Assembly: GCA_000004985.1 (NCBI GenBank)
Contig: GG738882.1
Direction: 5' to 3' (one strand)
Length of the DNA: 64,000 bases
Origin: Naegleria gruberi
Taxonomy: Eukaryota
The notes beneath the pieces are model-generated. The model saw only the letters and a list, made by a program, of their open reading frames with translations, was not told where the DNA came from and searched no databases. Each line of letters starts with the position of its first letter. Within the stretch, counting starts at the first letter, position 1. The position numbers and the translations under genes are program-made. This document shows positions 23,149 through 24,705 of the stretch, in pieces.

Positions 23149-24705
23149 ATGTCGTCATCATCATCGAGTAATAACAACAATAGCAATTCCTCAGCATCAT
23201 CCAATACTAATAACAATAATACAAATAATACAAATAATAACAATAACGCAGCAAAGAGAGCAATGAAGACTAAACCACAAGCAGAGAAGGAAATTAAACC
23301 TAAAAAGACACAGGAAGAGAAGGATAAATCGTTTATTACATCACAGGAGATTATTAGTAGAATTAAATGGGATGAAAAGTTCTCAACCTTTCTTGATGAT
23401 TTTACAATTGGATATTTGGATAGATTTGAAGGCTTGATGAAATGTTCAGTGCAAGAATTTGAAGATTCTGGTGAAATTCCATATCATAGAATTTGGTTTG
23501 TCTATTTCAATGGAATTATCATTTGGGATAGAGAGAAGAGAATTGATAATGTTTCTAAAGGAAAGTTGGAAGTGATTATTTCAGAATATTTCATAAATAA
23601 GCAAAAGGAAGAGGAAAGAAAAAGAGCTGAACTTGAGAAGGAAAGTAAAAAGAAAAAGAAGAAAAGGCAACCTGTTGCTTCTGCTAGCTCAGAATCATCA
23701 AGTCAACCAACTGAACAAGAATCTCAACGACATTCATCAGATGAAGAAGGCAGTAGTGAAGAAGGTGGTAGCTCTTCTGAAGATGATGGAGAACAACAAA
23801 TCACTGAACAAGTCATCTCTGAACCATTAGAGCCAAATACTGAAGATATTCTCTCTGCCTATGCAGCTCAATACAAGACTAAAAGAGTTAAAAAGGTCAT
23901 GTTCTCAAAGAATAAGACTAGAAAAGCTCAAGAACAATATGAACCTGAGGATGATTTGGAAAAATGGTTATTGGAAAATAATGAAACCAATGAGGCACTC
24001 GTTTTGCAGTTCCCAACCATGATTTCACAAAGAGGAGGTCACTACCATATCATTTTCGATTCACAAAAGAAATATAATGAGTATATTAATGCCTGGAAGA
24101 GCTCAATTGAAAAGAACCAAATTTGTTACATTGAAGAAATGAGAACAAAACATGCATTCAAACTCTATGTGGATATTGATATCAAATTAACAGTTCCAAA
24201 CTCACCTTACAATATTATTGAACATGGTTGGATCAAACTCATTCAAGATTTTGCAAAGGAATATTTCCAAGGATCACAAGATGTTTCAATGTTAGTGACT
24301 GAATGTCACTCAAATTGGCACGATAAGACCAACAAGACAGCCAAGTACAAATCAGGATACAGACTCTTTTTCCCAAGTATAGTTGTTGATTACGACAAAT
24401 TCTGTGATTTTACCTATCAACTTTCTTATCACATGTTGAATGTTGTGGGTTCATATGAAAATCAACCTGAAGATTGGAGTTTTGAGGATGTAATTGACTT
24501 AAAATCATGCAACCACCCAAGAGTTAGACTTTTCGGAACCACCAAGTGGAGAAGAGGAAGACTGTTGCCAAGAAAATATACTTTTGCTGGTTGGTTTAAT
24601 ACAGATAGTGAGCTTGATGAAAAGAAGACAACTGAGCTCAAGAATAACTTGTTTGAATTACTGAGATTGACTTCAGCAAGAATTGAAGATCCTTTCGAAG
24701 AATAA
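23149..24705 (+). CDS. Protein with an MJ1316/DUF504-like domain and an AEP/primase-polymerase-like domain
   Basis: The N-terminus is a poly-S/N tract. RIKWDEKFS...GYLDRFEG...EIPYHRIWFVYFNGIIIWDREKR fits the MJ1316/DUF504 pattern (R..W, DRF, HRI, WDR). An acidic and Ser-rich linker follows. The C-terminal region has KLYVDIDIK (AEP motif I, hhhDhD), KSGYRLFFPSIVV (motif II-like but lacking the His) and EDVIDLKSCNHPRVRLFGTTKWRRG (motif III-like, D...R.RL.G..K). Confidence 0.45.
   Translation: MSSSSSSNNNNSNSSASSNTNNNNTNNTNNNNNAAKRAMKTKPQAEKEIKPKKTQEEKDKSFITSQEIISRIKWDEKFSTFLDDFTIGYLDRFEGLMKCSVQEFEDSGEIPYHRIWFVYFNGIIIWDREKRIDNVSKGKLEVIISEYFINKQKEEERKRAELEKESKKKKKKRQPVASASSESSSQPTEQESQRHSSDEEGSSEEGGSSSEDDGEQQITEQVISEPLEPNTEDILSAYAAQYKTKRVKKVMFSKNKTRKAQEQYEPEDDLEKWLLENNETNEALVLQFPTMISQRGGHYHIIFDSQKKYNEYINAWKSSIEKNQICYIEEMRTKHAFKLYVDIDIKLTVPNSPYNIIEHGWIKLIQDFAKEYFQGSQDVSMLVTECHSNWHDKTNKTAKYKSGYRLFFPSIVVDYDKFCDFTYQLSYHMLNVVGSYENQPEDWSFEDVIDLKSCNHPRVRLFGTTKWRRGRLLPRKYTFAGWFNTDSELDEKKTTELKNNLFELLRLTSARIEDPFEE

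Follow-up and report, generated by a model that had tools for sequence, protein, structure and literature searches.

In this study, we describe a gene in a 64,000-nt window of DNA from the amoeboflagellate Naegleria gruberi whose product joins an MJ1316 domain to an archaeo-eukaryotic primase (AEP) domain of the PPL4 family, and we propose that this protein may act in the repair or extension of RNA 3' ends, a role to which we give a probability of roughly 0.5. According to this model, the MJ1316 domain would bring the protein to RNA termini (a 2',3'-cyclic phosphate or a related end) that metal-independent ribonucleases produce. The AEP domain, serving as a primer-extending or tailing nucleotidyltransferase and not as a primase, would then rebuild or extend the RNA 3' end once it had been healed to a 3'-OH, given that a 2',3'-cyclic phosphate end is not directly extendable. 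In Euglenozoa, a single polypeptide would also hold the healing activities, namely an EEP phosphatase, a 2H cyclic phosphodiesterase and, in some cases, a P-loop kinase; Naegleria would have to supply these in trans. Extension could be templated, as in the fill-in of a truncated tRNA acceptor stem, or could take the form of untemplated tailing.

Gene and domain architecture

The gene is a single open reading frame (ORF) with an ATG start that encodes 518 aa (Table 1), and its product is identical over its full length (100% identity, 100% coverage) to an annotated N. gruberi 'predicted protein' (P0001; NCBI/UniRef). Orthologues from N. lovaniensis and Willaertia magna share its C-terminal end, ...EDPFDE. 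The ORF is a genuine N. gruberi gene, and its domain matches go beyond chance. The only Pfam domains detected in the protein are MJ1316 and PPL4/AEP_C962R.

Table 1. Features of the MJ1316-PPL4 gene and protein, in window coordinates.
Feature	Position	Strand	Remarks
MJ1316-PPL4 protein gene, complete, intron-less	23149..24705	+	ORF list; stop codon inside end coordinate
Low-complexity N-terminus, aa 1-60	23149..23328	+	Ser/Asn-rich, then Lys-rich; translation
MJ1316 (DUF504/UPF0248) domain, aa 64-128	23338..23532	+	predicted RNA 2',3'-cyclic-phosphate end-recognition module
Linker, aa 160-250	23626..23898	+	Lys run KKKKKKR (aa 196-202), then acidic Ser-rich tract; translation
PPL4-family AEP (primase-polymerase fold) domain, aa 252-518	23902..24702	+	
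Codon M291 in PTHxSQxGGxYH motif	24019..24021	+	ATG verified in DNA
AEP motif I, LYVDIDI, aa 339-345, catalytic D342 and D344	24163..24183	+	aligns with FMDVDLD of poxvirus D5/E5 primase
AEP motif II, KSGYRLFF (SGYRLFF aa 402-408)	24349..24372	+	aligns with KTSFHIIF of poxvirus D5/E5
Extended AEP motif III, VIDLKSCNHPRVRLFGTTKWRRG, with D450, R458, R460, K466	24490..24558	+	aligns with IDTAVYRRKTLRVVGTRK of D5/E5

An MJ1316/DUF504 domain near the N-terminus had been proposed from the letters of the DNA, and PF04457 matches there above its gathering threshold (58.3 bits, cut-off 26.3, E 1.2e-15), covering profile positions 3-75 of 75. The block on which that proposal was built, RIKWD...YLDRFEG...IPYHRIWFVYFNGIIIWDREKR, lies at aa 71-131, and the R..W start and the HR and WDR motifs read from it are invariant among homologues. 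In an alignment of fused and non-fused MJ1316 proteins (A4), the invariant residues are R71, W74, D75, D91-R92-F93, G95, P111, H113-R114, W126-D127 and R131. Cyclic-phosphate recognition by MJ1316 is presented in PMC6514570 as a prediction from domain contexts, with Burroughs & Aravind 2016 and Mazumder 2002 given as its sources, and our structural comparison found no solved structure that resembles this domain. The flanking regions are less constrained; the N-terminus differs in length and sequence between orthologues, and the linker, with the expected acidic Ser-rich tract at about aa 203-250, is variable in length and consists largely of gaps in the homologue alignment.

At the C-terminus lies an AEP domain of the PPL4 family, which has a PrimPol / NCLDV-primase fold. 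PF18188 (PPL4, Prim-pol 4) matches aa 266-429 across its entire profile (1-159 of 159) with 228.6 bits (cut-off 25, E 4.4e-68), and PF23162 (AEP_C962R) matches with 66.2 bits (E 5.6e-18). These models stand in for those that the sequence-only reading had named, since PF09250, PF01896 and PF03121 give no match to the protein even at E<=10; by their HMMs, then, it belongs neither to the PriS/Prim1 family (PF01896) nor to the bacterial/plasmid Prim-Pol family (PF09250). The domain has the catalytic fold of the AEP superfamily, its best structural matches being ASFV C962R, human PrimPol, poxvirus D5/E5 and HSV UL52, and it keeps the N-terminal as well as the catalytic module of that fold, the two aligning with PrimPol over 193-208 residues. 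Together, the full-length PPL4 match and the fold bear out the AEP catalytic core that had been placed in the last ~200 aa. PDB sequence searches returned nothing relevant with the protein alone or with a 14-sequence profile, and it took a broader profile of 42 sequences to reach poxvirus D5/E5 and ASFV C962R. Of the 42 sequences that make up the broader alignment (A3), only 10 match PF03121.

A variant active site without a zinc finger

The three AEP motifs, LYVDIDI (aa 339-345), SGYRLFF (aa 402-408) and VIDL...RVRLFGTTKWRRG (aa 448-470), had been rightly assigned. Acidic residues typical of motif I (DxD/DxE) and motif III (hDh) are present as D342, D344 and D450. The first two each occur in 43 of 44 PPL4 members and in all 66 distant relatives; D450 is found in 38 of the 44, with Asn in its place in five, and motif I is lost in one member (P0051). 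K401 and K466 are universal in PPL4 (44/44) and R460 nearly so (43/44), while R458 is PPL4-specific, the distant relatives having Gly. The spacing of R460 and K466 is that of R291 and K297 in human PrimPol (PMC5088642). Among homologues of the protein, the invariant C-terminal residues are D342, D344, S402, G403, R405 and D450. Judged by alignment, the putative metal-binding carboxylates (D342, D344, D450) and the putative triphosphate-binding residues (K401, R460, K466) are intact.

Motif II (SxH) differs from the AEP norm in that its His is missing, as had been noticed. When KSGYRLFF is aligned by profile with KxGxHL, the consensus seen in distant relatives, R405 falls at the His position. 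Arg occupies this position in 40 of 44 PPL4 members, whereas 65 of 66 distant relatives have His there. The His-to-Arg change is family-wide and so marks a variant that still falls within the AEP superfamily. In human PrimPol, where a role has been described for the motif II residues K165/S167/H169, mutating the His diminishes or abolishes activity (PMC5088642). The remainder of the PPL4 signature (PTHxSQxGGxYH, DxD, KSGxR, D..RxR..G(T/S)xK) is complete save for H291, a position at which 43 of the 44 PPL4 members and 57 of the 66 distant AEP relatives have His, and at which Met is confined to the N. gruberi protein.

A UL52-type zinc finger is absent C-terminal to the catalytic core. The C-terminus extends ~50 aa beyond motif III without Cys or His, none occurring between aa 456 and the protein end at aa 518; the orthologues stop at the same place, and the gene's stop codon lies just 43 nt from that of its convergent neighbour. 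The protein thus lacks the UL52-like zinc finger of PrimPol (CCDC111) orthologues, and distant AEP relatives show a C..H..C..C consensus together with PF03121 matches. In human PrimPol, the zinc finger is needed for priming and is dispensable for polymerase or template-independent extension (PMC4027207). Its absence therefore makes a polymerase or tailing role likelier than priming.

The PPL4 family and its relatives

The PPL4 family is rare, with ~40 cluster representatives in 1.84 billion proteins, and all named members belong to Discoba. MJ1316 is present in 26 of 44 full-domain PPL4 proteins, and a paralogue in N. gruberi (P0007) has PPL4 without it. The N. gruberi proteins are the top PF18188 scorers among the members tested (228.6 and 238 bits vs <=192 for the others), and the 518-aa protein is therefore effectively the type member. 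Between Naegleria and Willaertia, the domain is ~65% identical and the linkers vary freely.

Long Euglenozoan forms (Angomonas, Diplonema, Entosiphon, Ploeotia, Perkinsela) have the Pfam architecture [MJ1316]-EEP-[AAA_33 kinase]-2H-PPL4, although some miss one domain match at the Pfam threshold, and a neighbour-joining (NJ) tree separates the heterolobosean short forms from them. Many proteins of bacteria, fungi and Amoebozoa are homologous to the MJ1316-EEP-2H part of the Angomonas protein; a cyanobacterial one, for example, matches it with E 2.6e-57 over 72% of the query. The bacterial proteins carry a Pol-beta-type poly(A) polymerase (PAP) at the collinear C-terminal position, and the fungal and amoebozoan MJ1316-EEP-2H-PAP proteins contain the same domains in permuted order. 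The collinear position of the bacterial PAP suggests that PPL4 displaces a template-independent RNA 3'-nucleotidyltransferase in a fixed architecture. Further out in this clade, an AEP is flanked by kinase and phosphatase domains on one side and by a T4 Rnl1-type RNA ligase on the other. The Naegleria protein carries neither an EEP phosphatase nor a 2H phosphoesterase domain; it is a minimal version, outside the long form of the MJ1316-EEP-2H-nucleotidyltransferase RNA-repair proteins.

A wider proposal, which we place a little short of even odds, is that PPL4 constitutes a Discoba-specific class of AEP acting on RNA and not on DNA. Such primase-fold polymerases, zinc-finger-less and with Arg for His in motif II, would be guided by MJ1316 to ribonuclease-cut RNAs and would rebuild or tail their 3' ends, in place of the PAP-type enzyme of the bacterial and fungal repair proteins.

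Candidate roles for the protein

That RNA repair is the better prediction than chromosomal priming, as the sequence-only reading held, is supported by the EEP, 2H-phosphoesterase and kinase domains added in relatives and by the absence of the primase zinc finger. Several observations weigh against RNA repair. Cyclic-phosphate ends need healing first, yet the Naegleria protein itself includes no healing domain; motif II has lost its His, and Met replaces the otherwise conserved H291; and the argument from PAP displacement comes from Euglenozoan paralogues, not from the Naegleria protein. In addition, the close structural neighbours are all DNA primases or DNA polymerases. The last point lends itself to a different reading, unlikely in our estimate, in which the protein is a DNA-directed PrimPol-type enzyme engaged in translesion synthesis, gap filling or repriming on nuclear or organellar DNA, and MJ1316 is a generic nucleic-acid-binding or regulatory appendage. 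The top matches are indeed DNA primase-polymerases, the catalytic carboxylates are intact, and kinetoplastids use the extra PrimPol-like AEPs PPL1 and PPL2 on DNA (PMC3898837). However, the zinc finger that priming needs is missing, and the recurrent partners of PPL4 are solely RNA-end domains (MJ1316, 2H, EEP, P-loop kinase), with no helicase, RPA-binding or DNA-repair domain among the PPL4 proteins scanned; the same module elsewhere, moreover, carries a poly(A) polymerase.

The recurrent RNA-end partners also bear on a second reading, to which we lend the same low credence: an RNA-templated, RdRP-like RNA polymerase that MJ1316 recruits to cleaved RNAs, where it makes a complementary strand, the dsRNA going to RNAi or RNA surveillance and the damaged molecule not being restored. 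These fixed partners are end-healing enzymes, which would be needless if the RNA were merely a template, and RNase III, PAZ and Argonaute-related domains occur in none of the PPL4 proteins scanned. Burroughs and Aravind reportedly linked 'RNA-acting prim-pol domains' to Dicer-like proteins in kinetoplastids, which would favour such a polymerase, and an AEP fold that retains both PrimPol-aligning modules is compatible with template binding; yet the zinc finger normally needed for de novo initiation is missing.

Perhaps the AEP domain is weakened or inactive and serves as an RNA-binding scaffold or sensor, with decay perhaps under way in the N. gruberi copy especially, a reading that we consider more doubtful still. 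The conservation of D342, D344, D450, K401, R460 and K466 in the protein argues otherwise, as does that of the domain between Naegleria and Willaertia while the linkers vary, and the retention of R405 in most members suggests that Arg has been selected as a working substitute for His. What suggests decay is that same His-to-Arg change, the Met at H291 in the N. gruberi protein only, the D450N substitutions, the loss of motif I in one member and the existence of the MJ1316-less paralogue. Lastly, it is highly improbable that the gene is not cellular but a relic of a replicase from an integrated giant virus or mobile element: although the closest relatives in fold and sequence are NCLDV C962R/D5-like primases, a helicase or other viral domain is absent, and viral insertion is rejected on the grounds of gene neighbourhood (flanking genes are cellular, namely MAPEG, 5'-nucleotidase and mitochondrial carrier), composition (GC content is uniform across the window) and phylogeny (the split in the NJ tree fits vertical descent).

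Significance

The sequence-only reading could match the architecture to no characterised protein. In line with this, no experimentally characterised member of PPL4 (PF18188) was found in the searchable literature. The architecture is nevertheless on record: the MJ1316-PPL4 combination is already known from Pfam (PPL4, 'Prim-pol 4'), UniProt and NCBI, with public entries named, for example, 'MJ1316 RNA cyclic group end recognition domain/2'-5' RNA ligase superfamily/Prim-pol 4'. A comparative-genomics survey by Burroughs and Aravind is also said to have taken in this architecture. The PF18188 family itself presumably goes back to the same authors (Burroughs & Aravind 2016, NAR 44:8525). The value left in the MJ1316-PPL4 protein is thus experimental, not bioinformatic.

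If PPL4 does form such an RNA-acting class, it would supply the first case in eukaryotes of a primase-fold enzyme whose dedicated task is RNA repair, and would offer a testable ligand for MJ1316. AEP enzymes are usually seen as DNA primases and DNA repair polymerases, and a clade built into RNA-end-healing architectures would broaden this view. As an intron-less, two-domain protein of 518 aa, the Naegleria protein would provide a simple model in which to test whether, as has long been predicted, MJ1316 recognises 2',3'-cyclic phosphate ends and an enzyme with a primase fold is able to repair RNA. PPL4 is also found in kinetoplastids and diplonemids, where genetics is feasible.

Comparison with known systems

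Within the PF18188 family, the sole peculiarity of the Naegleria protein is H291M. The Euglenozoan MJ1316-EEP-2H-PPL4 proteins (Angomonas deanei CAD2220916.1, Diplonema papillatum KAJ9454722.1) have the same first and last domains and share with it the signature DxD, K-S-G-x-R, D...RxR...K; where they carry EEP, 2H and an occasional AAA_33 kinase, the Naegleria protein has an acidic low-complexity linker. The bacterial, fungal and amoebozoan MJ1316-EEP-2H-PAP proteins, which go by the name 'RNA repair domain-containing protein / poly(A) polymerase', contain a homologous MJ1316-EEP-2H module. In the bacterial forms it also ends in a C-terminal nucleotidyltransferase, and because it is collinear there with the Euglenozoan PPL4 proteins, a functional analogy with poly(A) polymerase may be drawn. 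The nucleotidyltransferase of the PAP proteins, however, has a Pol-beta fold (PF04928/PF20750) that is unrelated to the AEP fold.

The N-terminal PrimPol domain of ASFV C962R (PDB 8iqb) and the AEP domain of poxvirus D5/E5 (8xig) are 12-15% identical to the Naegleria domain and belong to DNA primases with zinc-binding and helicase modules that keep the motif II His. Human PrimPol (CCDC111; PDB 7jk1, 5L2X-type) acts on DNA and has a DxE motif I, the motif II His, a UL52-like zinc finger and an RPA-binding tail, traits that are all absent from the Naegleria protein. A conceptual precedent is found in the polymerase domain of bacterial LigD, an AEP that is brought to broken nucleic-acid ends by a partner module in NHEJ, and that extends primers with NTPs and dNTPs and has terminal-transferase activity (PMC4027207).

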